Below, one piece after another: positions 4,218 to 55,503 of a stretch of DNA of 64,000 nt; position 1 is the stretch's first letter, and each line of letters begins with the position of its first letter. The notes beneath the pieces were generated by a model. The model was not told the origin of the DNA, made no database searches, and was given only the letters and a program-made list of their open reading frames with translations. This DNA is from Myxococcota bacterium. GTDB taxonomy: Bacteria; Myxococcota_A; Polyangia; Nannocystales; Nannocystaceae. The DNA lies in assembly GCA_039028615.1 (NCBI GenBank), contig JBCCHT010000055.1:19945-83944 (forward strand). Direction: 5' to 3'. Both the position numbers and the translations under genes were made by a program.

Positions 4218-4937
4218 TCAGATCATGATGCCCAACTCGTAACGTCGGTACAGCGCTGATTTACGCCGATCGGTTCGCATCGACGTTCGGTTGATGTCCG
4301 TGATGGAAAAGGGCGCGGCCTCCCGAGCCAGACCGACCTTGCGTTCCATCGTCCAGTCGGCCATCGGCTCGAGCTCGTCACGCGTCAGACCGAACAGCTG
4401 CAAAAAGAGCACGGTGCCGTGCGGTGTGTCGATCTTCCCTAGCTGTGGGTCCGGCACGCAGACCACGCCCACGAGGGCGCTGGCCCGGGTCGTGCCCGTC
4501 TCGGGGTCGGCGTCGGTCGGCCCGAGCGGCCCTCCCAAGTCGATCACGTGACCGCTGTCGAAGGGGCCATGCCCGGACAGCACGTAGTGCCCCAGCATCT
4601 GCAGCAGCTGCACCGCCCACATCGGCGGACGTTCCTGCTCGGGCGTCCGCGGGATCCGAAAGGTGAGCTCGTACCCGAAGCCGCTCTGCTCTGGATCGGG
4701 CGAGCTCTTTTCGAATAACTCCGTCAGCCCGTAGCCCACCAAGTGCCAGTGATCGGGCCCCCTACCCTCGTGGGCCACCACGGCGGGCAAGGGGCTACGA
4801 CCCTCGAGGTCGTAGGGCTTTTGGCTGGTGAGCTGGTGCGGCGTCTGGCCGGGATGGATCGTCGCCAAGGCGCGATCGATCGCCGCCCAGCCGGGCGCGT
4901 GCACGGGATACCGCGGATCGTCCTTCGCGTCGCTCAT
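4218..4937 (-). CDS. Suppressor-of-fused (SUFU) domain protein
   Basis: PGWAAID, DHWHLVGYGLTEL, SGFGYELTFR, IDTPHGTVLFLQLFGLT; ATG at 4937 overlaps the serC stop (ATGA). Confidence 0.85.
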   Translation of the reverse strand: MSDAKDDPRYPVHAPGWAAIDRALATIHPGQTPHQLTSQKPYDLEGRSPLPAVVAHEGRGPDHWHLVGYGLTELFEKSSPDPEQSGFGYELTFRIPRTPEQERPPMWAVQLLQMLGHYVLSGHGPFDSGHVIDLGGPLGPTDADPETGTTRASALVGVVCVPDPQLGKIDTPHGTVLFLQLFGLTRDELEPMADWTMERKVGLAREAAPFSITDINRTSMRTDRRKSALYRRYELGIMI

Positions 4938-6058
4938 CCCTTGCGCTCGAACTCCCGCATGAACTCGCACAGCACGTCGACGCCCGCCTCGGGGAAGGCG
5001 TTGTAGATCGACGCGCGGCAGCCCCCGACGGAGCGGTGACCCTTGAGCCCGGAAAGCCCGGCCGCGGCCGCGTCGGCGATGAAGGTCTTGGTGCGCGCAT
5101 CGGCATCGTCGCCCGCGAGCGTCCAGGTGACGTTCATGGTGGAGCGGCTGCCCGCCTTGGCGTGCGGCTGGTACAGGCTGCTCTCATCGAGCACCGAGTA
5201 GAGCTTGTCGGCCTTGCGGCGGTTGACCGCGCCCACGGCCTCGACCCCACCCTTACCCTTGACCCAGTCGAGCACGTTGCGGAGCACCATGATCCCGAAG
5301 GTGTTGGGCGTGTTGAACAGGCTGTTCTTCTCCGAGTGCGTCGTGTAGCGCAGCATCGTGGGCACGTAGGCCGCGGCCTCTTTTTCGAGCAGCTCGCGGC
5401 GCATGAACACCAGCGTCACCCCGGAGGGGCCGAGGTTCTTCTGCGCGCCCGCGTAGCCGAGCGAGATGTTCTCGAGGGCCATCTTCCGCGACCCGATGTT
5501 GCTCGACAGGTCGACGACGAGCGGCGTGTCCCCGGCGTCGGGGATCTCGGCCAGCTCGGTGCCGTAGATGGTGTTGTTACTCGTCAGGTGCAGGTAGCTC
5601 GCACCCGAGTAGCGATCGGCCGCGGGCAGCTGCGGGACGTGGTCGTAGCCGCTGTCGGCCGAGCTGGCGATGACCTCGGTCGCGCCCAGGCCCTTGCTCT
5701 CCTTGATCGCCTTCTTCGACCACACGCCGGTGTCGACGTAGGCGGCCGGCTTGTCGGCGACGCGAAGGTTGTAGGGCACCATCGCGAACTGGAGGCTCGC
5801 GCCGCCCTGGAGCAGCAGCACCTCGTAGTCCTTGGGCACGCCGAGCACGTCGTGCACCAGCGCCTTCGCCTCCTCGTGGATGGCGTCATAGGTCTTGCTG
5901 CGATGGGAGATCTCGAGGATCGAGAGCCGGGACTCGAGCGAGTCGTCGCCGGGCACGTCGAGCGAGCGCACGGCGGCCGCCGTACGCTCGAAGACCTCGG
6001 GCGGGAGGATCGCGGGACCGGCCGAGAAGTTGAAGGGGCGCTCCGTCATGGAGGCCAT
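4934..6058 (-). CDS. serC: Phosphoserine aminotransferase
   Basis: FNFSAGPA, LQGGASLQF, NNTIYG, YAGAQKNLGPSG, FNTP, KGHRSVGGCRASIYNA; start at 6058 or 6049. Confidence 0.95.
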   Translation of the reverse strand: MASMTERPFNFSAGPAILPPEVFERTAAAVRSLDVPGDDSLESRLSILEISHRSKTYDAIHEEAKALVHDVLGVPKDYEVLLLQGGASLQFAMVPYNLRVADKPAAYVDTGVWSKKAIKESKGLGATEVIASSADSGYDHVPQLPAADRYSGASYLHLTSNNTIYGTELAEIPDAGDTPLVVDLSSNIGSRKMALENISLGYAGAQKNLGPSGVTLVFMRRELLEKEAAAYVPTMLRYTTHSEKNSLFNTPNTFGIMVLRNVLDWVKGKGGVEAVGAVNRRKADKLYSVLDESSLYQPHAKAGSRSTMNVTWTLAGDDADARTKTFIADAAAAGLSGLKGHRSVGGCRASIYNAFPEAGVDVLCEFMREFERKG

Positions 6059-6221
6059 TGGCTCGGATTTCGGAGGCGAAGTCAAAAGCGAACCCCGACA
6101 TCCGCGACTCTCCCGTCCCAATTGGGCGTGAGGTGAATCGCACCCCGCCCACCGGGCATTTCATCGCGCGGCGACGGTGCCTTTTGAAGCGCGTGTCGCC
6201 ACGGTGTAGCGTCCGGGCATC

Positions 6222-6782
<561 letters not shown>

Positions 6783-6820: not shown

Positions 6821-8221
6821 TCAGCCTTCGATCTCGGCGACGATCTGCGCTCGGATGGCCAAGACCTCCGAGCGCAGGGTCGCCACCTCTGCGCGCCACT
6901 CGGTCACGTCCCCGAGGTCGGGGTCGGCCATGATCGCGGGCTCGATCTGCCCCGCGATGGTGTCGATGCGCTCGTCGATGGCCTCGAGCGTCCACAGGTT
7001 ATCCAGCAGGTCGTGCGACGCCGCCGTGTAGTCGCTCCACATCGAGGTCACCAGGCCTTCGATGATCGGGTCGCAGGTCGCCGCCCGGCGCCCGACGGCG
7101 CCGTCACCGATGGGGCGCGGCTCGCAATCGGCCGACAGATCGGACCAGTGCGGCTGGTCGAAGAACTCCTTGAACGGGTTGGGGTCATCGAAGCTGTTGT
7201 CGAGGTCCCAGGGGATCAGCCACACCCGCTGGGTCTGAGTCTCCTCGTACCAGTAGTAGTTGTGGTTGCCGCAGCCCCAGTCCCCGCACCAAAACCCCAG
7301 CGCGCCGTCCCAGTTCTCCACCATGCGATCGACGGCCAAGAGCCGAGCGAGCGCGGCTCGGTCCATCCATCGATCGATCACCTCGTCCATGGCCTCGGGC
7401 GTGGACGACTGGAGCTCCTGCGCGAACAAGACCATGTCGAGTGCGTCGGGAGACTCGTCGCGGTTGGTCTTGAGCGCGTCGAGGTAGGGCCCTTCGCCGA
7501 AGTGCATGGGCCACACTTCTTTGTACAGGTTGCCCTCTCCGTCCTCGGGGAAATTCACCCGAGTGAAGCGCCCGTCCACCTGCTCGACCAGCGCGTATAG
7601 CCCCATCAGCTCCCCGTTGATGACGAGCTGGGCATGGACCGCCCGAGACGCGGGCACACCGAAGTCGCGGAACAAGGCGTAGCCGAGCCGCTCGGTGATC
7701 TTCGACGGGTCGGCCTTCATCGAGTGGAAGTTCAGGCGCTTGAGCCCATCGAGAAGCTGGTCCTCGACATACTCGTCGAAGCGAATCTTCATCGACAGCT
7801 TGTCGCAGACCAACATGCCGCCCTCGAAGCAGTTCGCCAGCGAGCCCACGTTGCCCTTGTAGCGAATGGCCACGTTCTCCAGCCGCTGCCCATCGACCTC
7901 GACCGCGGCGGGGACATACTCCTCCGCCTGCGGGTCCGCGTTGATGCGCTCCAGGTCCTCGGGCGCAATCTCGACGGAGTAGGTGCGGAGCTGGGTGGGA
8001 TCGAAGACCCAGTCGCCGTGGTCGGCCCCGGCCGGGTCTCCGCCCGTCGAAGAATCCGCCCCCGTGGTCGGCTCGCCCGCCGTGCCCAACTCCGAGCCCG
8101 TGCCCGTCGCGGTGGCGTCCTCCGCCTCCGACGACAGGCCCGCATCACACGACCACGATGCGAGCGTGGCCCCCAACACGGGGACGAGACGAGCCCTCTT
8201 CAACATCCCCATCCAATCCAT
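6821..8221 (-). CDS. CotH kinase family lipoprotein
   Basis: IRYKGN, KLSMKIRFD, GLYALVEQVD, NWDG...HNYYWY...IPWDLDNSF; lipobox-like LASWSC; start approximate. Confidence 0.85.
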   Translation of the reverse strand: MDWMGMLKRARLVPVLGATLASWSCDAGLSSEAEDATATGTGSELGTAGEPTTGADSSTGGDPAGADHGDWVFDPTQLRTYSVEIAPEDLERINADPQAEEYVPAAVEVDGQRLENVAIRYKGNVGSLANCFEGGMLVCDKLSMKIRFDEYVEDQLLDGLKRLNFHSMKADPSKITERLGYALFRDFGVPASRAVHAQLVINGELMGLYALVEQVDGRFTRVNFPEDGEGNLYKEVWPMHFGEGPYLDALKTNRDESPDALDMVLFAQELQSSTPEAMDEVIDRWMDRAALARLLAVDRMVENWDGALGFWCGDWGCGNHNYYWYEETQTQRVWLIPWDLDNSFDDPNPFKEFFDQPHWSDLSADCEPRPIGDGAVGRRAATCDPIIEGLVTSMWSDYTAASHDLLDNLWTLEAIDERIDTIAGQIEPAIMADPDLGDVTEWRAEVATLRSEVLAIRAQIVAEIEG

Positions 8222-8432
8222 CGATGCCAGTGTGCCAGGCCGCACCGCACCGTGTCACCGGGAACGAACCATGCCGCTGGCGGTGGATTCGCGAGGACGA
8301 ACGAAGGGCTGAAGTGGCAAGTTCCGCATGCTCATCCAGCCCGGCGAGTGCAACCCGGCCCGATCGGAACACCAGGCTCCGATGGCCGAGTCGAAGCGGA
8401 TCGACTCGACCATCGGCCGTGCTCGATGAGCA

Positions 8433-10571
8433 TCACCCACCGCGGCAGTCGACGTTGCGTTCGGCTTGATCGAGCAACACTGCGGCCAGGGTGTCGGAGA
8501 TGGGCAGGCCCGGGTCGCGGTCGAGCCAGAAGAACTCGCCGACCGGGTTGACCTCGAGGAACACGTGGCGCCCATCGGGCGTGACGATGAAGTCGGCCGC
8601 GCCGTAGTTGAGGCCGAGCTTGCGCTGCAGGGCGAGCAAACCCGTCTCGACGTCCTTGGGCAGCGAATAGGGCTGCCAGTCGTTGATGAGACCCAGGCCG
8701 TCGCGACGCCAGTCGACTTCGGTCTGCGCGCGACGAGCGGAGTCGATGGATGCCGACATGACCTTCGTGCCGGCCACCGTGACCCGTAGCTCGACCACCT
8801 TGGTCAGCTCCTCCTGGAAGGTCATGGGACACAGGGAGAGCCCATCGAGTTCTTGGAGGTCCTGCTCCTTCACGCGCGTGGTGTAGACCACGTTCTCCCG
8901 GCCTTCGCGGTAGATGGCGAAGGAGTGCTGCATCTTGGTGACGACCCGGCCTTCGAGGCGTCGCCAGAAGTCGCGGGCATCCTCGGCTCGGTTGGTCACC
9001 AGCGTGCGCGGCACCTCGAGCCCGACCTCGGACGCGAGGCGAAGCTGGAGTTCCTTGTGGTGCGTGCGGGTGACCGAGGCGAGCCGATCGAGCTGGAAGC
9101 ACTCCAAGTTCGCGATGGTGCCGAACAGGGTGCGACGGGTCTCGCCCACCGCCGCCTCTCGGGTATCACCCATGGAGCGCGGCAGGCCGCCCCCCGCGGC
9201 GAAGCGCCGATACCAGACCGCCTGCAGCGACTCGAGGGCATAGCCCTTGCCGTCGACCACCACCAAGCCGGTCCCGCCGCGACTGCGCACGGTCGACAGG
9301 CCCACCTCCTGCGGATAGCGGTCGGTGTTCATGCGGATCGGCACGCCGCCCCGCTGCTCGATGGCTGCGCTGACCGTCTCGATGCACTCGTTGTCGCCGC
9401 TGTGGGTGATGATGAGCACCGTCGGTTTCGACGAGTCGGCGGTGACCACCGCGGGGGCTTGCCGAGGCGTCTCGGCCGGTTCGGTCGTGACTCCGGGCAA
9501 CGTCGCCCGAGCCTCGGCCGCCGGTCGGGGCACGACCTCGACCGGCTCGAGCACCCGCGCTTCGCTCGGCGCCCGCTCGGGCTGCCCCGTGGCGTCGACC
9601 AGCCACTGCCCGATCGCATCGGCGATGGGTAGCTCGAGGTCTCGCTCGAGCCACCCCCACTCGCCCGCGGGGTTGAGCTCGAGGAACACGTGCTCTCCCT
9701 CGGGCGTCACGATGAAGTCCATCACCCCGAAGGACAGACCCAGGCGATCGAGCAGCTGCCGCGCCTGCGCTCGCAAGGCATCGGGCACGGTGGCGTGCTC
9801 CCACGGCGGCCCCTCGTCGGCCCGAAGCCGCCGCCAGTCGACCTCACCGCGCGTGGTTCCCCGGGTATCGATCGCGCCGGCAAAGCACTGGTCTCCCACC
9901 AGCACGACCCGGAGCTCTCGCCCCTTGGGTATCTCGGGCTGGAAGATCTGCGGAACCCAGCGCAGGTCTTCGGCCTGCTGCAGGTCGTCGCTCGAGACCC
10001 GGCTGGTGTACATGAAGTCGCCGCGACCGCCCTTCATGTCGTAGCTGATGGGCGTCATCAGCTTGGTGACCACCGCCGATTCCTGCTGCGCCGCGAAGCC
10101 CCGCACCTCCCCCGGATGGTTGCTGAACAGGGTGTCGGGCACGGTCATGCCCACCCGCGCCGCCTCGATCAGCTGCCGGGGTTTGGACTCGGCCGCGAGC
10201 TGCAGATCGATGCGGTCGAGCCACCCCGCGCCATCGAGCAGGGGCAACAGCTGGGTCATGGCCACGCGGGCGTGATGGCTGGCGATGCCCCGCCACCGCG
10301 GCGCCAAGCCATCGAGGCCGCTTGCGGTCCACAGGCGGCGCATCCACACCGCCCCGACCCGCGACAGATCGACCGCGCGACCATCCGCATGGAGGACCCC
10401 TTGCACCGTGCCCTGCTGGGCACGCACCGACAGCGACAGCTCGGCGGGAAAACGATCGGTGTCGACACGGAGTGCTTCCACTCCGCGCCGAGCCACCGCC
10501 GCCTGCACGCGATCGATGGTGAAGAAGTCCCCGCGGTGGGTCAGGAGAAGGACGAGCGTGTCGTCGGCCAA
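8433..10571 (-). CDS. Tandem (fused) microviridin-type ATP-grasp peptide maturase: MdnB/MvdC-like N-domain plus MdnC/MvdD-like C-domain
   Basis: Two full ATP-grasp units: LLLTHRGDFFTIDRV...FQPEIPKGRELR...FLELNPAGEWGWLE and VLIITHSGDNECI...FQEELTKVVELR...FLEVNPVGEFFWLD, joined by a ~55-aa Pro/Ala/Glu/Thr linker. Confidence 0.9.
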   Translation of the reverse strand: MADDTLVLLLTHRGDFFTIDRVQAAVARRGVEALRVDTDRFPAELSLSVRAQQGTVQGVLHADGRAVDLSRVGAVWMRRLWTASGLDGLAPRWRGIASHHARVAMTQLLPLLDGAGWLDRIDLQLAAESKPRQLIEAARVGMTVPDTLFSNHPGEVRGFAAQQESAVVTKLMTPISYDMKGGRGDFMYTSRVSSDDLQQAEDLRWVPQIFQPEIPKGRELRVVLVGDQCFAGAIDTRGTTRGEVDWRRLRADEGPPWEHATVPDALRAQARQLLDRLGLSFGVMDFIVTPEGEHVFLELNPAGEWGWLERDLELPIADAIGQWLVDATGQPERAPSEARVLEPVEVVPRPAAEARATLPGVTTEPAETPRQAPAVVTADSSKPTVLIITHSGDNECIETVSAAIEQRGGVPIRMNTDRYPQEVGLSTVRSRGGTGLVVVDGKGYALESLQAVWYRRFAAGGGLPRSMGDTREAAVGETRRTLFGTIANLECFQLDRLASVTRTHHKELQLRLASEVGLEVPRTLVTNRAEDARDFWRRLEGRVVTKMQHSFAIYREGRENVVYTTRVKEQDLQELDGLSLCPMTFQEELTKVVELRVTVAGTKVMSASIDSARRAQTEVDWRRDGLGLINDWQPYSLPKDVETGLLALQRKLGLNYGAADFIVTPDGRHVFLEVNPVGEFFWLDRDPGLPISDTLAAVLLDQAERNVDCRGG

Positions 10572-10578
10572 GGCTCGA

Positions 10579-11739
10579 CTACCCCGCCCCGCCGTCTTCC
10601 CAATCGGACGGGTACTTGAGCGTCACCGGGCCGCCACCGCCGTCTTCTTCGTCCGACGGGTACTTCTCGGTGACCGGGCCTTCCTCGTGATCGGACGGAT
10701 ACTTGCGCGTCACCGGACCGTCCTCTTCGTCCGATGGGTACTTCCGCGTCACCGGACCGCCGCCGCCGTCCTCTTCGTCCGACGGGTACTTGCGCGTCAC
10801 CGGGCCGCCGCCGTCCTCCTCGTCCGATGGGTACTTGCGCGTCACCGGGCCGCCACTGCCATCTTCCTCGTCCGACGGATACTTGCGCGTCACCGGGCCG
10901 CCGCCGTCCTCGTGATCGGACGGGTACTTGCGCGTCACCGGACCACCGCCGTCCTCTTCGTCGGAGGGGTACTTGAGCGTCACCGGGCCGCCGCCGCCGT
11001 CCTCGTGATCGGACGGGTACTTCTTGGTCACCGGTCCGCCGTCTTCTTCGTCGGACGGGTACTTCTGGGTGACCGGTCCGCCGCCGCCGTCCTCGTGATC
11101 GGACGGGTACTTCTTGGTGACCGGTCCGCCACCGCCGTCCTCGGCGTCGGAGGGGTACTTCAAGGTCACCGGGCCATCCTCGTGATCGGAGGGGTGCTTG
11201 CGGGTGACGGGACCCTCCTCTTCGTCGGACGGGTACTTGAGCGTCTGCAGATCGGAATCGCCGCCCTGCTGATCCTCGAGGAAGCGGGCGAAGAAGGGTT
11301 GGTCGCGGACGCGCGTGGGCTCGACCTTCTCCATCAGGCGCGCCGCTCGACGACCCGCCAGACGAGCGCGACGCATCAGCGACTCGGCGTGGTCGCGCAT
11401 CTCCTTGACGCGATCGTCATGGGCGTCCTGCCAGGTCTTCGCGGCTTCGCGTTGACCGGCCTCGACCAAGGTCCGGGCCACGTCGCGCATGCGCTCGAGC
11501 ACGGTCGCTTGGCTCTCGGGTTCGTCGGACGCGGCCGCGAGTGCTTCGTGCGCTCGGTTGACGGCCTCGGCTGCCGCCTCGTTCCCGGCCGCACCTCCCG
11601 CATCACCAGAGGCCGCACGCGTGCGAGCTTTGGCGGCCTTCTTGGCGACTTTCTTCGCTACTTTTTTCGCGACCTTTTTGGTCGCTTTCTTTGCAGCTTT
11701 CTTAGCAGTGGTTTTCTTGCGCGGTCGTCGTGTTGCCAT
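10579..11739 (-). CDS. Microviridin-type graspetide precursor with 15 core repeats and a Lys-rich N-terminal extension
   Basis: PFFARFL motif (nt 11278-11298); 15 x TxK(Y/H)PSDxE(D/E) separated by G(n)PV linkers; 7 nt upstream of the ATP-grasp gene. Confidence 0.93.
   Translation of the reverse strand: MATRRPRKKTTAKKAAKKATKKVAKKVAKKVAKKAAKARTRAASGDAGGAAGNEAAAEAVNRAHEALAAASDEPESQATVLERMRDVARTLVEAGQREAAKTWQDAHDDRVKEMRDHAESLMRRARLAGRRAARLMEKVEPTRVRDQPFFARFLEDQQGGDSDLQTLKYPSDEEEGPVTRKHPSDHEDGPVTLKYPSDAEDGGGGPVTKKYPSDHEDGGGGPVTQKYPSDEEDGGPVTKKYPSDHEDGGGGPVTLKYPSDEEDGGGPVTRKYPSDHEDGGGPVTRKYPSDEEDGSGGPVTRKYPSDEEDGGGPVTRKYPSDEEDGGGGPVTRKYPSDEEDGPVTRKYPSDHEEGPVTEKYPSDEEDGGGGPVTLKYPSDWEDGGAG
10582..11244 (-). 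repeat. Coding imperfect tandem repeat, 15 units of about 39-48 nt, encoding the graspetide cores
   Basis: Recurrent gtcacc...aagtacccgtccgac...gaggacggc units (minus-strand reading) with synonymous variation and variable Gly runs. Confidence 0.92.
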
Positions 11740-11923
11740 GTTGGGGGCTCGCTTCGTTGCAGGTGCAAAATGCTAGCACCGCGCTACGGGATACCTGTGG
11801 CCCGTTGGGGGACCTTGGATCGATCGTTCCTGGGTCCAGCACGAAATGCGATCGGCGTCACAGCTGCAACGCGGGTGATCCGTGGCATGGGCCATCACGT
11901 GTGGCCCTGCTAGCCTGAGCGCC

Positions 11924-12394
11924 GTGAAGACCCCAGTCCGCACGATCATGCTCGGCCTGATGCTCGGAAGCACGATGGTAGCCACCGGCTGCTACGGCAA
12001 CGTCGACGCCTTCATCGAGAAGAAAGCCAAGCTGGACTGCAAGCGCGTCGAAGAGTGCGACCGCTCCACGTTCGAAAACGCCTACAACGGGGACCAAGAC
12101 CGCTGCCGCAGCGACACGGAGACGCTCCTCCACGGGCTCAACGACATCTTCGACGCCGCCGGTTGCGAGTACGACCCCGACGAGGGCCGCCTGTGCATCA
12201 AGACCTCCCGGCAGCTCAAGAAGACCTGCGGCAGCGATGCCGACCAAGACATCGTCGACGACTGCGAAGAAGTCCTGCGCTGCGGCGCGGGCCTGGGGCT
12301 CGATCCTGAGGACGAGTGGGACGAGCTGTCCCCCGAGCAGCTCGTTTCCGAACCCGAAGACGAGCCCGTCTCCGAGGACGAGCCCGAGGCCTAG
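11924..12394 (+). CDS. Small Cys-rich lipoprotein with an acidic tail, function unknown
   Basis: Signal peptide ending ATGC, several Cys, E/D/P-rich C-terminus; GTG start 7 nt after a TAGCCT -10 box. Confidence 0.7.
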   Translation: MKTPVRTIMLGLMLGSTMVATGCYGNVDAFIEKKAKLDCKRVEECDRSTFENAYNGDQDRCRSDTETLLHGLNDIFDAAGCEYDPDEGRLCIKTSRQLKKTCGSDADQDIVDDCEEVLRCGAGLGLDPEDEWDELSPEQLVSEPEDEPVSEDEPEA

Positions 12395-13626
12395 CCGGCC
12401 CGGTCTGTGCCCCAGCGCAGCTGCACGCGCGCGCCTCCGCTCGGTCCGTTTTCGAGCACCAGCGTGCCGCCGTGCAGCTCGGCCACCATCGTGGCGACCA
12501 CGAGCCCGAGGCCACTGCCCTCGGGATGGTCGCTGCGACCCAGTCCCGCGCGGGCCGCCTCGCTGAAGCCGGGCCCGGAGTCCTGCACCCATAGGCCCTG
12601 CGCGTCGGCGCCGATGCGAACGCCCGCCCCGCGCTCGGCCCCCGCGTGGCGCTCGGCGTTGTGCAACAGGTTCGCCACGACGACCGACAGCAGCGCCCCG
12701 TCGACGTGCGCGGTGACGTCCTCGCCCTCGTACTGCGCCTCGGGAAAGTCCTCGCAGGCGCGCTCGATGAGCAGATCGACGCGGACTCGCTCGAGCCGCA
12801 GGTCCTGCTCCCCCGAAGACAGCCTCGCGTACCACAACAGCGTGTCGACATGCCGTCCCGCGGTGCAGGTGACGGCCGCCACCCGACCGAGCGCCGCCAT
12901 CGGATCTTCGTCGCCCGCTTGGCCCGACTCGGCGACCGCCCGCAACGTCGACAGCGGCGTGCGCAGCTCGTGCGCGGCGGCGGCGATGAACCGAGCGCGA
13001 CTACGAAATAGGCGCTCGAGCGGCGCGACGCTCATCGAGCTGAGTCGCCGCGCCATGAGGATGCCCAGTACGGCCAGGCCCATGAACACGCCGAGCAGCC
13101 CGCCGGAGAAGCTCCATTGCGCCCAGCGAAGCTCGTCCAGATCGCGAGAGACCACCGCCAGTCCCCGGATGTCGAGGCTCTCGTCGGCAAAGATCGGCAG
13201 CACGTGGACCCGGTTGCCCGCCACGTCACCGAGCCAGCGCTCGGACTCGCCGGTCGCGACCTCTTCGAGCGCGGGCTGGAGCTCGCCGCGTAGCTTCGGG
13301 TCGAGCGGCTCGCCCCACAGCTGCGGATGCTCCTCGCTCGCCGCGAGCACGCGCATGGGAAACTCGGGGTCTTCGGCCCAGGGCTCGCGCTCGAGCAGCT
13401 CGGCGTGAATGGCCCCCGACTCGTCGATCCACGACAGCCCGTAGATCACGGTGGCGCGGAGCTGGAGCTCGGTGTCGAGCTGCTCGAGTCGTCGCTCGCT
13501 GCCCTCGAGCAGAGCCACCGCCAGCAGGATGCCCAGCCCCGCAAACCACGACAGCGCGTACCAGCCCGCGATCTGGCGGCGGAGCCGAGGCAGGTGCGCC
13601 GAGCCGAGCTCGGGACGCTCACCCAC
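12391..13626 (-). CDS. Two-component sensor histidine kinase
   Basis: Two TM segments, H-box AAHELRTPL, N-box NLLHNAERH, DSGPG and GSGLGL. Confidence 0.9.
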   Translation of the reverse strand: MGERPELGSAHLPRLRRQIAGWYALSWFAGLGILLAVALLEGSERRLEQLDTELQLRATVIYGLSWIDESGAIHAELLEREPWAEDPEFPMRVLAASEEHPQLWGEPLDPKLRGELQPALEEVATGESERWLGDVAGNRVHVLPIFADESLDIRGLAVVSRDLDELRWAQWSFSGGLLGVFMGLAVLGILMARRLSSMSVAPLERLFRSRARFIAAAAHELRTPLSTLRAVAESGQAGDEDPMAALGRVAAVTCTAGRHVDTLLWYARLSSGEQDLRLERVRVDLLIERACEDFPEAQYEGEDVTAHVDGALLSVVVANLLHNAERHAGAERGAGVRIGADAQGLWVQDSGPGFSEAARAGLGRSDHPEGSGLGLVVATMVAELHGGTLVLENGPSGGARVQLRWGTDRAG

Positions 13627-14284
13627 GCGACGACTCCACGATGTAGCCGAGCCCTCGGCGGGTATGGATGAGCGGCGGTCGACCGAGCTTGCGACGCAGG
13701 CTGGCGACCGTGGCCTCTTCGACGTTCGACTTCGCGTCGAGGTCCCCCCAGCAGTGCTGCCTCAGCTCGGCCCGCGACACGACTCGCCCCTGGCGGCGGA
13801 CGAGCAGCTCGAGCACCGCATACTCCTTGACCCGCAGCGGGAGCAGCACGCCGTCGCGCCGGACCTCGCGTCGCGCCAGATCGACCTGGAGATCGTCGAC
13901 CTGAAGCTCGAGCATGGGACGGGTGGCACCCCGGCGACCGAGCGCAGCGATGCGCGCGAGCAGCTCGGCCATGGCGAAAGGCTTGCCCAGGTAGTCGTCG
14001 GCCCCGTGTGCGAGGCCCTCGACTCGGTCGTGGACCTCGCTGCGAGCAGTGAGCACCAGCACCGGGACGCCGAAGCCCCCGGCCCGCCACGTGGCCAGGG
14101 ACTGCAGGGCATCGCCGTCGGGCAAGCCACGGTCGAGCACCACCACGTCGAGCTCGGCCTCGTGAGTCCATGCCTCGGCCTCGGCCAGGGTGCCCGCGAT
14201 CTCGCACACATCGCCCTGCGCCGTGCAACGACGCGCAATCGCCTCGGCCATCTCGGCCTCGTCTTCGACGATCAGGATGCGCAC
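13619..14284 (-). CDS. OmpR-family response regulator
   Basis: RILIVEDE, LDRGLPDGD, GADDYLGKPF, winged-helix end LRRKLG..IHTRRGLGY. Confidence 0.93.
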   Translation of the reverse strand: MRILIVEDEAEMAEAIARRCTAQGDVCEIAGTLAEAEAWTHEAELDVVVLDRGLPDGDALQSLATWRAGGFGVPVLVLTARSEVHDRVEGLAHGADDYLGKPFAMAELLARIAALGRRGATRPMLELQVDDLQVDLARREVRRDGVLLPLRVKEYAVLELLVRRQGRVVSRAELRQHCWGDLDAKSNVEEATVASLRRKLGRPPLIHTRRGLGYIVESSRG

Positions 14285-48106: not shown

Positions 48107-48379
48107 TCAGCGCTCCGTCGTGCCCACGGCCGACAGCCGCGACCACGTGTCGGCGGTCATGGTCTGCGCCGTCTCGGCCCAGTCCCCGACCACGAAGGCC
48201 AACGCGCCCAGCACGGCCAGCCCTCGCAAGACGCCCGCCGCCACCGGATCACTCAGCCCGATGCGCGCCGCGAGCCAACCCGCGACCAGGCTGCCCAGCA
48301 CCCCCGCCAGCAACAGCGGCAGCACCACCGTCACGGCCAGACCCAGCCCCTCGAGCACCAGCCCGGGCAAGTCGGTCAT
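48107..48379 (-). CDS. fliQ: Degenerate FliQ/SctS-like protein
   Basis: 90 aa, two hydrophobic helices, EGL...LPLLLAGVLGSLV; position between P and R. Confidence 0.6.
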   Translation of the reverse strand: MTDLPGLVLEGLGLAVTVVLPLLLAGVLGSLVAGWLAARIGLSDPVAAGVLRGLAVLGALAFVVGDWAETAQTMTADTWSRLSAVGTTER

Positions 48380-48981
48380 GCGTAGTAGCCCTCCACCAAG
48401 CCGCCGATCACCACGTCCCAGCCGCCGACGGCGAGGAAGAGCAGGAGCTTGAGCGGCAGGGTCACCAGGCGTCCGGGCGCCGACGACAAGCCGAGCAGGG
48501 TCAGCGCCTGGGCGACCACCAGGTCCACCAGCACCAAGGGCAGCAGCACCAGCACCGCCATGTGCAGGGCCTCGGTCAGCTCGGTCACCAGGAACCCGGG
48601 CACCAACACCCGCGGGTCGTCCACGGGCAGCCCCTGCAGCTCACCGAAAAAGGCGAGCTCCTCCGCCGCGGCATGACGCTCCACGAACGCGCGCAGCGGC
48701 TCGAAGACGGGGATCCAGACGTCCCAGCCCGCGCTCGACAGCGCCGCCCAGCCTCCCGCTGCGTTGGCGGCCTCGAAGGTCTCCACCGCCACGGGGGCCA
48801 TGACCACGCCGGTCACCACCAGCGCCAGGGCCAGCATCGCCGACCAGGGCAGCAGGGCCTCGGCGCCCAAGCCCACCCGCAGAGCCCCCAGGACCACGCT
48901 GCTCTTGGCGAACGCGGTCGCGATGGCCAGCACCAGGGGCACCCCGGCCAAGACCAGCCAGGGGACGATCTCAGGCTCCAT
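48376..48981 (-). CDS. fliP: FliP/SctR-like export-gate protein
   Basis: TAFAKSSVVL..LR..LG, VMAPV, PLRAF, LVPGFLVTELTEA, DLVVA, LPLKLLLFLAVGGW. Confidence 0.85.
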   Translation of the reverse strand: MEPEIVPWLVLAGVPLVLAIATAFAKSSVVLGALRVGLGAEALLPWSAMLALALVVTGVVMAPVAVETFEAANAAGGWAALSSAGWDVWIPVFEPLRAFVERHAAAEELAFFGELQGLPVDDPRVLVPGFLVTELTEALHMAVLVLLPLVLVDLVVAQALTLLGLSSAPGRLVTLPLKLLLFLAVGGWDVVIGGLVEGYYA

Positions 48982-49270
48982 GGGCCTCCACGGATGCCTC
49001 GGCCTCGGCCGGCGTCGGGACCTCGGCCAGCGGCGCCAGCTCGGTCATCAGCCGCGGTGCCGCGCCCGGCCCGGTGCCCACCACCAGCCGCCGCCCCTCG
49101 AGTTCGACCACGTGCAGCGCATGCTGGCCGCCCAGGGAGATCGTGCGCCGCGTGGCACCAGAGGCCTCCGTACGCCGCTTTTGCGCCCACAGGCCCAGCA
49201 GGGCCAACCCCGCGAGCAACAGGCCCAGCGTGGTCAACGACGAGGCTCCAGCCAGGGCGAGCATCGGCAC
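48971..49270 (-). CDS. fliO: FliO-like protein
   Basis: N-terminal TM then RTISLGGQHALHVVELEGRRLVVG, a FliO-type beta domain; first gene of the operon. Confidence 0.65.
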   Translation of the reverse strand: MPMLALAGASSLTTLGLLLAGLALLGLWAQKRRTEASGATRRTISLGGQHALHVVELEGRRLVVGTGPGAAPRLMTELAPLAEVPTPAEAEASVEAHGA

Positions 49271-49838: not shown

Positions 49839-50846
<1,008 letters not shown>

Positions 50847-50875
50847 GATGCGTGACGCCTCCGCGGACGATGGGT

Positions 50876-51505
50876 TTACTTGGAGTACAGCTCGACGATG
50901 AGCTGCTCGTCGATCTCGGCCGCAATGTCCGAGCGGGAGGGCAGGGCCGAAACCTTACCCTTGAAGTGGTCCTTGTCGACCTCGAGCCAAGCGGGGCGGG
51001 GTCCGCGGTCGCTCTTGGCGAGCGCCTCACCGACCTTGGCCACCTTGCGGCTCTTCTCGCGGACCTCGATCACGTCGCCGACGCGGACGAGGTAGGAGGG
51101 GATGTCGACGCGCTTGCCGTTGACCATGAAGTGGCCGTGGCGAGCGAGCTGGCGGGCCTCGGCGTGGCTGGCCGCGAAGCCGCAGCGCAGGACCACGTTG
51201 TCGAGACGACGCTCGAGCAGCTGCAGCAGGTTCTCACCGGTGACGCCCTTCATGCGGGTGGCACGGTGGTAGTAGCCGCGGAACTGCTTCTCCATCAGCC
51301 CGTACATGCGCTTGACCTTCTGCTTCTCGCGAAGCTGCTGGCCATAGTCACTCGGGCGACGGCGACGGCCCTGGCCGTGCTGGCCGGGGGGATAAGGGCG
51401 GCGCTCGTAGCCGCACTTCGTCGAGAAGCAGCGATCGCCCTTGAGGTGCAGTCGGGTGTCTTCCCGACGGCAGAGGCGACAAACGGGACCGGTATAGCGA
51501 GCCAT
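50876..51505 (-). CDS. rpsD: 30S ribosomal protein S4 (Cys-motif form)
   Basis: [30 protein letters not shown]. Confidence 0.98.
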
Positions 51506-51511
51506 GGTGGG

Positions 51512-51898
51512 TCAGACCCTGCGCCGCTTGGGAGGGCGGCAGCCGTTGTGGGGGATGGGAGTGACGTCTTTGATTGCGGTCACGCGCATGCCCGAGGACT
51601 GAACCCCGCGCAGCGCCGACTCGCGACCCGCTCCGGGGCCGCTGATGCGAATCATGACGGTCTGCATGCCGTGGTCCTGGGCCCGACGACACGCCTCGTC
51701 CGCAGCCAGCTGGGCCGCGAAGGGCGTGGACTTCCGGGAGCCCCGAAAACCACGCACCCCGGCCGAGGCCCATGCGATCACGTTGCCGTTGACATCGCTG
51801 ACGCTGACCAGGGTGTTGTTGAAGGTAGAGCGAATGTGAACGATCCCCGTGGAGATGTTCTTCTTGACGCGCTTCTTGCCGTGCTTGCTCGTAGCCAT
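51512..51898 (-). CDS. rpsK: 30S ribosomal protein S11
   Basis: [30 protein letters not shown]. Confidence 0.98.
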
Positions 51899-51918
51899 TT
51901 ACGAAACTCGCTCCCGCG

Positions 51919-52290
51919 CTAGCGCTTCTTCTGCGACACGGTGGCCCGCTTGGGACCCTTGCGCGTGCGGGCGTTGGTATGGGTTCGCTGACCTCGAACC
52001 GGCAGGCCACGACGATGTCGTAGCCCTCGGTAGCAACCGAGGTCCATGAGCCGCTTGACGCTCATCTGGACGTCGCGACGGAGGTCACCCTCGACGCGAT
52101 AGCCCTGCTCGATGACCTGACGGATCGCACTGACTTGCTCGTCGGTGAGGTCGTCGGTCCGAACCGAGGGACCGACCCCCGACTCGCTCAGAATCTTCGT
52201 GGCAGTGGAGGTGCCCACTCCGTAGATATAGGTGAGGGCAATCTCGATCCGCTTGTTACGCGGAAGGTCTACACCGGCGATGCGTGCCAT
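51919..52290 (-). CDS. rpsM: 30S ribosomal protein S13
   Basis: [29 protein letters not shown]. Confidence 0.98.
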
Positions 52291-52293
52291 GTC

Positions 52294-52407
52294 TTAGCCT
52301 TGCCTCTGCTTGTGCTTGGGGTTCTCGCAGATGACGCGCACGACACCGCGCCTGCGGATCACCTTGCACTTTTCACAGATCTTCTTGACGCTCGCTCTGA
52401 CTTTCAT
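52294..52407 (-). CDS. rpmJ: 50S ribosomal protein L36
   Basis: [37 protein letters not shown]. Confidence 0.98.
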
Positions 52408-52463
52408 GGCGGATGAACCTGCGTCGCTCGATAAAGGGTGGGTCGGGTGGGAAGCTTGGGAGG

Positions 52464-52685
52464 TCAGGCTTCGACGATCGCGACAATGGTGCCGCGGCTT
52501 GGGTCGAGGCGTGCTCGGCGAACGCGGACGCGGTTGCCGGTGCGAATCGGACGGGCGAGCCGACCGAGTTCCTCCGAAGGCCCGGCGACTACCACGGTTC
52601 CATCGGAGAATTGAAGCCTGAAAAGTCTTTGAGGTAGCTCGGCCGTGACGGTCGCTTCGACCGCTTGCTGGGCCGCGGAGTGCAT
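52464..52685 (-). CDS. Divergent translation initiation factor IF-1-like OB-fold protein
   Basis: 73 aa at the infA position; [23 protein letters not shown] skeleton. Confidence 0.65.
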
Positions 52686-52773
52686 GCTTTTCCCTCTCCC
52701 GGGGCTCGGGAGCGGCGGAGCATGCCACCGCGCATCTCGTTCGTCTACCCGGGTGCGGGGTGATCAATTCTCA

Positions 52774-52787
52774 ATGAGTTAACTCAT
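52774..52787. promoter_or_regulatory. Perfect 14-bp AT-rich palindrome, candidate operator
   Basis: ATGAGTTAACTCAT, about 90 nt upstream of the IF-1-like/rpmJ/rpsM block. Confidence 0.45.
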
Positions 52788-53157
52788 CCCCTAAAATCGC
52801 TCCAATGTCCCGGGATCGCACCAATTCGGGGCTGTTGCCGGCCGCGCACCCAGGCCGAGAAGGGCTCCAGCCGAAGGGAGTCGGCGGATTGTAGCCGCAT
52901 CGCCCGGGGACAGCCGTTTTTCTCGGGTGCGAATCGGGGAGCCGGACCGGGGCCAAGACTCGCTAGATCGCGGTTTTCACGCGTTCTCGAAGGGAACGAG
53001 ACGCTGACCCGACCGGCGAGAATCGGGGCGTCGATCCCGGCATCGATCTCCGTCGGACCCGTCGATCCCATTCCCGCGCTCGAGCGACGGCGACCCCTCT
53101 CCTCCTCGCGAAGAAAAACGACCGCCGTGTGCATCGTCGGTAGTGACTCGATCGACT

Positions 53158-53796
53158 TCAGAGGACTGCCATCACTCGAGTGAAGATCTCGTTCGGATCG
53201 CCGACGCCGTCGACGGCGACCACGATCCCCTTGCCCTGATAGTGGGCGATGACGGGACGAGTCTCGCTGTCGAACTTGTCCAAGCGAGCGCGCACCTTGT
53301 CGGGCTTGTCGTCGGTGCGCTGGTACAGCTCTTCGCCGGTCACGTCGCACACGCCCTCGACCTTCGGGGGGTTGTACTTGATGTGATAGACGTGCCCGCT
53401 CGGTGACATGCGGCGACCGGTGATGCGCTCCTCGATGAGATCGAAGGAGACCTGCAGGTCGACGACCTTGTCGATGGTCACCGCGGCATCGAGCGCATCG
53501 GCCTGCTTCATGGTGCGAGGGAAACCATCGAGCATGAAGCCGGCCTGGGCCTCGGGCGCGGCGAGAGCTTCCTTCAGCAGGTCGATGACCAGGTCGTCGG
53601 GCACGAGCGCGCCCGCGTCCATGAAGCCCTTGGCCTTCTGACCGAGCTCGCTGCCGGCCTTGACCGCGGCACGCAGCAGGTCGCCCGTGCTGATGTGGGC
53701 ATAGCCGAGCTGCTCCTTGAGCTTCTTGGCCTGGGTTCCCTTACCTGAGCCGGGGGCACCGATGAGGATGATGCCCTTTGCACGATCTTCGCTCAT
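53158..53796 (-). CDS. adk: Adenylate kinase
   Basis: GAPGSGKGTQA, HISTGDLLR, LDGFPRT, LID domain. Confidence 0.97.
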   Translation of the reverse strand: MSEDRAKGIILIGAPGSGKGTQAKKLKEQLGYAHISTGDLLRAAVKAGSELGQKAKGFMDAGALVPDDLVIDLLKEALAAPEAQAGFMLDGFPRTMKQADALDAAVTIDKVVDLQVSFDLIEERITGRRMSPSGHVYHIKYNPPKVEGVCDVTGEELYQRTDDKPDKVRARLDKFDSETRPVIAHYQGKGIVVAVDGVGDPNEIFTRVMAVL

Positions 53797-54009
53797 GCCA
53801 AGGCTCATACCATCGGGACGTGTACCGGTTCCATGGTGAACGGGGATGCCCACCCAGGAGCGACCGTGAGCGCTCGGAGGCTCGCTTCGGTCCGGTGATG
53901 CGCCCCTGCCCTTCAACGAAACAGACGCCCCCAGACGCAACGACGGCCGCCTCCTGAACGGAAGCGGCCGCTGGTGCGCTGAGGCTTCGGGCGCTGGCCC
54001 GAGCGCGGC

Positions 54010-55314
<1,305 letters not shown>

Positions 55315-55503
55315 GCCGTATTCCTCGTGGGGCTGCCGACCCGATGGTCGCTACAGCCGCAGGCCGCCCCACTGGGGAAGCGACCATACCCTACGCTGCC
55401 AGGGCTGACATCTGACCGAATCGTCGGCCGGTCGTCAGACGTGGCGAAGGCGCACTAGGTCGTAGCGCGCCTCCCGCAGGTCGTCCACGCAAAGTGGGTT
55501 CGA

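Follow-up and report, generated by a model that had tools for sequence, protein, structure and literature searches.

How many cross-linked cores can one microviridin precursor carry, and does so long a chain stay whole or serve as a store of small peptides? The question is raised by a two-gene locus in a 64,000-nucleotide stretch of DNA from a Myxococcota bacterium, sampled as a marine metagenome (assembly GCA_039028615.1, contig JBCCHT010000055.1, positions 19,945 to 83,944 of the forward strand). We refer to this stretch as the window and number its positions from its first letter. Both genes lie on the minus strand: a 386-residue precursor with 15 core units is encoded at 10579-11739, and a 712-residue ATP-grasp ligase at 8433-10571. 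Judged from its sequence, the locus is a microviridin (group 1 graspetide) system by its leader, its core and both of its enzymes, and it falls outside the described limits of class II systems, with three times as many cores, a folded domain that fits no known family, two ligases joined in one protein and a ligase clade of its own. Papers are cited by PMC number, each for the parts of its text that were available.

The precursor carries fifteen core units

A preliminary description of the locus had reported an open reading frame in which a PFFARFL motif precedes 15 core units, and we recovered exactly this arrangement. The encoded protein belongs to the microviridin/marinostatin family (NF033738 and PF12559), scoring 184.6 bits against NF033738, where the cut-off is 26, and the pattern T.K[YH]PSD..[DE] was matched by 15/15 units. 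The array (10594-11244, minus strand) consists of TxK(Y/H)PSDxE(D/E) cores, with 11 distinct peptide sequences among them, joined by Gly-Pro-Val linkers of 3-6 residues of the G(1-4)PV type. There is a single leader. Its PFFARFL ligase-recognition motif occupies residues 148-154 (11278-11298, minus strand) and is followed by EDQQGG, and the farthest cores lie about 220 residues away from it. We assign the motif its role from section 5 of PMC8939145, where the leader helix is described as activating the ligase.

Which protease a microviridin targets depends on the residue that stands between Thr and Lys (P1), where Arg or Lys favours trypsin and Leu favours elastase (PMC7823629). From core 1 to core 15 the P1 residues of the window precursor are L, R, L, K, Q, K, L, R, R, R, R, R, R, E and L, that is, nine basic residues, four Leu, one Gln and one Glu. 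Lys3 and an acidic residue at position 10 are retained in 15/15 cores; since the latter is Asp in 13/15 and Glu in 2/15, most lactams would be Lys-Asp. A lactam of this kind has been shown by nuclear magnetic resonance in myxomiditide A (PMC12848669). We kept the Thr-Asp and Ser-Glu esters originally assigned to the cores and amended the Lys-Glu amide to one that is mostly Lys-Asp. One core has His in place of Tyr, a position at which relatives often carry Ala or Ser.

The array is real and is under constraint at the protein level. When the complete 12.27-Mb genome was searched in all six frames with T.K[YHWF]PSD, the core motif was confined to the precursor reading frame, and a DNA pattern for the core gave 13 matches in this genome while its reversed control gave 0; the array is thus beyond chance. 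Nor is it an echo of assembly, because only 1/105 pairs of units shows identity across 30 nt and the six core positions that form rings or hold Pro (Thr, Lys, Pro, Ser, Asp7 and Glu9) show synonymous changes only, position 2 (P1) being occupied by five different residues. Logan contigs from run X1 cover the stretch from end to end, with 0 differences in the seven on-target pieces listed, an agreement that is not independent since X1 is possibly the source sample, and no single X1 piece spans the array. The depth of the listed pieces was 9.6-17, except for 25.6 in a 36-nt piece at a duplicated unit, and runs X2 and X3 yielded almost nothing. No sigma-70 promoter was found for the locus, and six terminator-like matches all lay on the opposite strand within the precursor gene. 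A PF12559 search of the host genome returned 0 matches and missed even the known precursor, which makes it uninformative.

A two-enzyme ligase

The ligase gene (8433-10571, minus strand), identified by family profiles and homologues, starts with TTG 7 nt beyond the precursor stop (gap 10572-10578), at the distance first given for it, and by family profiles the locus has two ATP-grasp domains and no more. The N-terminal, MvdC/MdnB-type half (residues 7-325; 9597-10553, minus strand), predicted to form lactams, is placed by TIGR04185, against which the protein scored 610 bits (cut-off 425), and aligned over its full length with structure 5ig8 (E 3e-81), which together with 7m4s (AMdnB) is its best structural relative. 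The C-terminal, MvdD/MdnC-type half (residues 385-701; 8469-9419, minus strand), predicted to form esters, is placed by TIGR04184 (protein score 647 bits, cut-off 475) and aligned in full with its best structural relative, 5ig9 (E 1e-83). Between them lies a Pro/Ala-rich linker of 55 aa (9426-9590, minus strand), disordered in the model. Both the group 1 assignment and the single fused ligase of the preliminary description stood up, in that the two halves exceed curated cut-offs, align with the MdnB and MdnC structures and have homologous fusions elsewhere.

We regard the ligase as a true two-enzyme fusion and no read-through accident, because 12 other full-length homologues of 700-730 aa were present among 18 matches, with at least 98% coverage and 48-88% identity. 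Across the 13 fused proteins the linker measures 31-78 aa, and K130, K170, D285, N300, K506, K546, D571, D660, E673 and N675 are invariant (13/13); the position of E298 holds Glu in 10 and Asp in 3. The active-site Glu and Asn of the ligase halves are presumably metal-binding residues. When compared with 5ig9-type relatives, K546 and D660 align with a Lys/Asp pair of AMdnC, mutation of which kills that enzyme (PMC5934393). In the AlphaFold model of the fusion both halves are well formed, but its predicted template modelling score of 0.47 is uninformative on how they pack.

Fused ligases occurred in 2/80 genome loci, L001 (Myxococcota) and L002 (Thermoanaerobaculia), both of which repeat the two-gene layout of the window, with 9 and 4 cores respectively. 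Of 72 further genomes in the host's family, G049 alone has a full-length match to the ligase; it is a member of the same genus, and its proteins, which are the same as those of L001, were counted once. Trees were built from 80/80 genome loci, 16 family regions, 14/80 metagenome loci and the fused proteins; the 14 metagenome loci were picked for near-complete ligases or long precursors, a choice that favours a contrast in core counts. FastTree analysis of each half placed all 14 fusions in one group together with 5-6 split pairs, at supports of 100 and 97, and a concatenated IQ-TREE analysis of 36 chosen rows recovered the identical 19-row group (100/100). A single origin of the fusion was neither shown nor rejected (approximately unbiased test, p 0.44). 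Precursors at the clade loci have 15 (window), 9, 4, 6, 7 and 11 cores; that of L174 has 3 in a single frame and further ones across a frameshift, and L149 and L186 have no cores in the DNA covered. The 101 loci outside the clade have at most 4 cores, a contrast in which kin are not independent. Fusion is not needed for many cores, since long precursors also stand beside separate ligases, and it is thus one solution within the ligase clade.

A separate observation concerns G047, of the same genus, in which locus L112 (4163-9623) holds a conventional one-core, split-ligase microviridin cluster after three genes like those at window 4218-6782 (74-79% identical). Its ligases are 41% and 50% identical to the window ligase and fall outside its clade, so that two different microviridin cassettes occupy one site in the two genomes.

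A helical domain and related long precursors

Ahead of its leader the precursor bears a basic, Lys/Ala-rich N-terminal tail (residues 1-43; 11611-11739, minus strand; net charge +20), similar to a tail in the sister precursor of L001, and a predicted domain of about 95 aa (residues ~47-139; 11323-11601, minus strand). AlphaFold gave this domain three confident helices, with a predicted local distance difference test score of 89-98 per block over most of it, and no Pfam or NCBIfam family matched. A profile built from 31 sequences matched 44 stored proteins, of which 41/44 have PFFxx(F/Y)L downstream, a co-occurrence that is partly circular because the proteins were found using a query that included the leader; the other 3/44 are short and look truncated. 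The profile matched the precursor reading frame alone in the host genome and gave 1 match among proteins of 514-2000 aa. In structural comparisons the best Foldseek E was 1.4 (TPR/MIT-type), the best VIA-align match (Z 8.9, root-mean-square deviation 3.2, 65 aligned) was in the range of any helical bundle, and ESM Atlas feature searches with P0001 45-165 and P0022 20-160 returned no usable match; such generic helical matches do not show that the fold is new. By profile match, the domain recurs in dozens of long microviridin precursors, where it may act as a scaffold or dock the ligase.

The comparison of core counts suggested at the outset was run on 174 proteins including the window precursor, the homologue lists being ranked by likeness to a multi-core query and not a survey. 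With the loose motif [TS]x[KR]xPSD, 15 cores were counted in nine proteins and 14, 13 and 10 in one each, whereas with the canonical motif only the window precursor has 15 and the next best has 11. P0022-P0030 form a group of 460-480 aa precursors with 15 cores, and P0208 has 16 by the loose motif. The eight other 15-core (loose-motif) proteins and P0208 rule out that 15 cores are a one-off. The core pattern was present in 6/401 genomes of a phylum sample and a profile match in 11/401 of a class sample, with no giant array beyond G049 in either.

The expectation that the architecture was undescribed held in part: no case was found in the literature, but the precursor is not a singleton and belongs to a recurring long-precursor family with a pre-leader domain. 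In the titles and abstracts that full-text searches returned, neither a natural MdnB-MdnC fusion nor any microviridin precursor exceeding five cores was described; Ahmed 2017, Lee 2020, Ramesh 2021 and Li 2016, with their supplements, lie outside this coverage and could bear on novelty. Class II precursors are given up to five cores (PMC13039773, PMC7823629), in keeping with the earlier statement that characterised precursors are short and have few. One published survey sought precursors below 100 aa (PMC12848669) and another began from proteins of at most 150 aa (PMC8939145). Five short strings from the long-precursor family were absent from the 11 supplements of the latter, whose consensus file holds one long multi-repeat precursor with another motif and an N-terminal extension; long arrays are therefore not new to graspetides overall.

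The relatives are varied in build. P0055, P0056, P0059, P0031 and P0208 are helical-domain precursors with extra parts, either several hundred residues after the cores or an insert of ~190 aa between leader and first core. For both P0208 and the fused ligase P0014 the longest contig measures 48,820 bases, and they may therefore be neighbours. A second kind of long precursor (P0021, P0037-P0039, P0045, P0046, P0062, P0063, P0079; L164:1098-2204; L174) has a different domain of ~100 aa ahead of its leader and 5-11 cores, and in L164 and L174 it adjoins separate ligases of the window ligase's clade. Proteins P0034, P0042, P0047, P0048, P0050, P0051, P0116 and P0131 (418-512 aa) combine a helical N-terminal part with 4-8 mid-protein cores; no PFFARFL was found in them, the ~100-aa domain of the second kind stands at their C-terminus, and they are possibly modified in trans. 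Loci L116-L124 of the host's family encode precursors whose only core is preceded by two Cys (YHCLDxxCTKKYPSD), a pattern that suggests an additional disulfide ring.

Predicted chemistry and end product

By analogy with known pathways, the PFFARFL helix would bind and activate the ligase. On each core the C-terminal MdnC-type half would form the Thr1-Asp7 ester and then the Ser6-Glu9 ester, and the N-terminal MdnB-type half would close the Lys3-Asp/Glu10 lactam, the papers on relatives giving the order as large ester, small ester, lactam. Cores would be modified one by one, distributively, as multi-core processing has been described (PMC5934393), and the tethering of both activities in one chain may help to finish so long a substrate. 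Full modification would amount to up to 45 links, a mass change of -810 Da and a computed shift in the net charge of the array from -30 to 0. The cages would remain joined in a single chain, whether or not the helical N-domain is kept, each presenting its own P1, the nine basic residues towards trypsin-like and the four Leu towards elastase/chymotrypsin-like proteases. Such a chain may protect the cell from the proteases that competitors, prey or grazers make, or may regulate the cell's own. We are confident, by this analogy, that the ring chemistry would be of the microviridin type; that the same chemistry also ends in a multivalent serine-protease-inhibitor chain we put at somewhat better than even.

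Of the two end products considered, a multivalent trypsin/elastase-inhibitor chain would be most likely over released monomers. No peptidase, transporter or acetyltransferase was found among the 7 flanking window open reading frames, and the 24 flanking ones of 7 clade loci include none of the C39, ABC or GNAT families. Gly-Gly linkers number 0/8 in the sister precursor and 0/3 in L002, and relatives embed their cores, either between two other domains or, in P0055 and P0056, ahead of 430-547 further residues. Plesiocin remains four tandem cages, outperforms a fragment of itself as an inhibitor and in a mixed-P1 version inhibits two proteases (PMC10125368). On these grounds, the comparative evidence leans towards a polymer. 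It is unlikely, in our estimate, that the precursor is instead a combinatorial library, whose Gly-rich linkers would be cut by a protease encoded elsewhere to release up to 11 different small microviridins, the 15 copies serving yield and variety. Such a library would fit the Gly-Gly in 10/14 window linkers (4/14 are without it) and just after the leader, since class II precursors carry this motif, often with C39 transporters, and the LEDQ after the leader seems to us to resemble the NosP-linked LEEQ/LAEQ motif (PMC13039773). C39 and M1 genes do occur in the host genome, and C39 genes in those of L001 and L002. However, one of the host C39 genes belongs to a plesiocin-type cluster (L207), the sister linkers lack Gly-Gly altogether, and cutting a three-residue linker would leave almost no N-terminal residues, without which marinostatin loses activity (PMC13039773).

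The proposed total of up to 45 crosslinks stands as an arithmetic maximum, complete modification being only an upper bound: on three-core AMdnA, where six esters are possible, the main AMdnC species had undergone five dehydrations (PMC5934393). This precedent, the ~220 residues that separate some cores from the single leader, the one His-for-Tyr core and the many Ala or Ser at that position in relatives would suit a heterogeneous mixture far below 45 links, in which some cores only are modified or two esters only are closed, giving marinostatin-like bicycles. We think this improbable, as the lactam half is intact and conserved, both lactam positions are kept in every core and AMdnC reached an engineered fourth core (PMC5934393). 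Far less credible still is a functionless repeat expansion or assembly product paired with an accidental read-through. Gly-linker repeats slip easily, and the source is a short-read metagenome assembly in which no X1 contig spans the array; yet the units differ at synonymous sites, unique pieces are at single-copy depth, there are 13 further fused ligases and numerous long precursors, and the two-gene layout recurs in L001 and L002.

Several observations nevertheless weigh against a dedicated, uncut inhibitor chain made by a fused enzyme. The three C39-domain genes of the host all lie on other contigs and are joined by six M1-peptidase matches, and NosP acts 0.8 Mb from its own cluster (PMC13039773). 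Gly-Gly is found in many linkers of more distant relatives (12/15 in P0208), a PmbA/TldD gene directly precedes the ligases in L186 (2-1192), and M24 peptidases lie near L002, L164 and L174. L144, L157 and L164 pair long precursors with apparently separate ligases. The leader-binding Glu191 of MdnC (the roles of Glu191/Asp192 being taken from PMC12848669) is Gln570 in the window ligase, at a position that varies freely among fusions. No signal peptide or exporter was seen, so that no way out of the cell is apparent for an inhibitor.

Relation to known systems

One of the closest described systems is AMdnA/AMdnC of Anabaena sp. PCC 7120 (PMC5934393), which shares with the window one PFFARFL leader, tandem TxKYPSDx(D/E)(E/D) cores and MdnB/MdnC-type ligases. 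AMdnA has 3 cores (its class at most 5) against 15, and the window system differs further in its fused ligases and the ~147 residues before its leader motif. Class II clusters usually encode a C39 peptidase transporter, whereas the window locus has neither such a transporter nor an acetyltransferase beside it. The microviridin J/K pathways (MdnA/B/C, MvdE/C/D; 5ig8, 5ig9) resemble the window in full-length enzyme alignment, ring residues and P1 position, but have a single core, separate enzymes, N-acetylation and a Lys-Glu lactam where the window lactam is predicted to be mostly Lys-Asp. Myxomiditides (PMC12848669) share a Myxococcota host, the microviridin cage, the Lys-Asp lactam and elastase inhibition, the last predicted for the window; they use four separate ligases and combine one cage with KxxE lactams, whereas the window has no KxxEKxxE motif or extra ligase. 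Membership of the myxomiditide class (MyxF) was ruled out, the linkers being G(n)PV and not (KxxE)n, with no third ligase type.

Plesiocin has a core of TTxxxxEE hairpin bicycles. This group 2 graspetide of Plesiocystis pacifica (PMC10125368) is a marine myxobacterial tandem multi-cage inhibitor on one chain, to which the window product may be likened by analogy; it has one ligase and four repeats, and its core and leader are unrelated to those of the window. The host itself carries a plesiocin-type cluster outside the window (L207; G000:C18:214229-218734), with a short precursor of four TTLA(I/L)GEE repeats, one ATP-grasp gene, a HlyD-like gene and a C39-ABC transporter.

Neighbouring genes

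The flanks of the locus look unrelated to it. A CotH-kinase-family gene lies downstream (6821-8245, minus strand), genes for a small protein rich in Cys and for a two-component pair lie upstream (11882-14284), and these flank genes have no match in the sister locus. Farther off in the window, a FliP-family gene (48379-49044) adjoins a rpoA/adk/secY housekeeping block (49842-55350, minus strand). At other loci, M24 peptidases with a SEC-C motif stand downstream (L164:5430-6662 and L174:9018-10250) and are candidate processing enzymes, as is the PmbA/TldD of L186.

Implications

The window precursor has three times the highest core number in print for a microviridin precursor, and it suggests that size-filtered genome mining has missed a microviridin branch. 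We consider it possible, though short of an even chance, that this overlooked branch makes protein-sized cross-linked arrays, with up to 15-16 tricyclic cages on a chain with a dedicated folded domain, by a separate clade of ligases whose enzymes were fused at least once into a tricycle synthetase. Its products would then be multi-headed inhibitor proteins and not small-molecule peptides made on the ribosome and modified after translation. The two genes make testable the reach of one leader in distributive cross-linking, the choice between polymer and library, and the coordination of ester and amide formation, which is stated to be unknown for AMdnB (PMC5934393). An MdnB-MdnC enzyme in a single chain would have practical uses as well, in making microviridins with one enzyme and in designing multivalent inhibitors.

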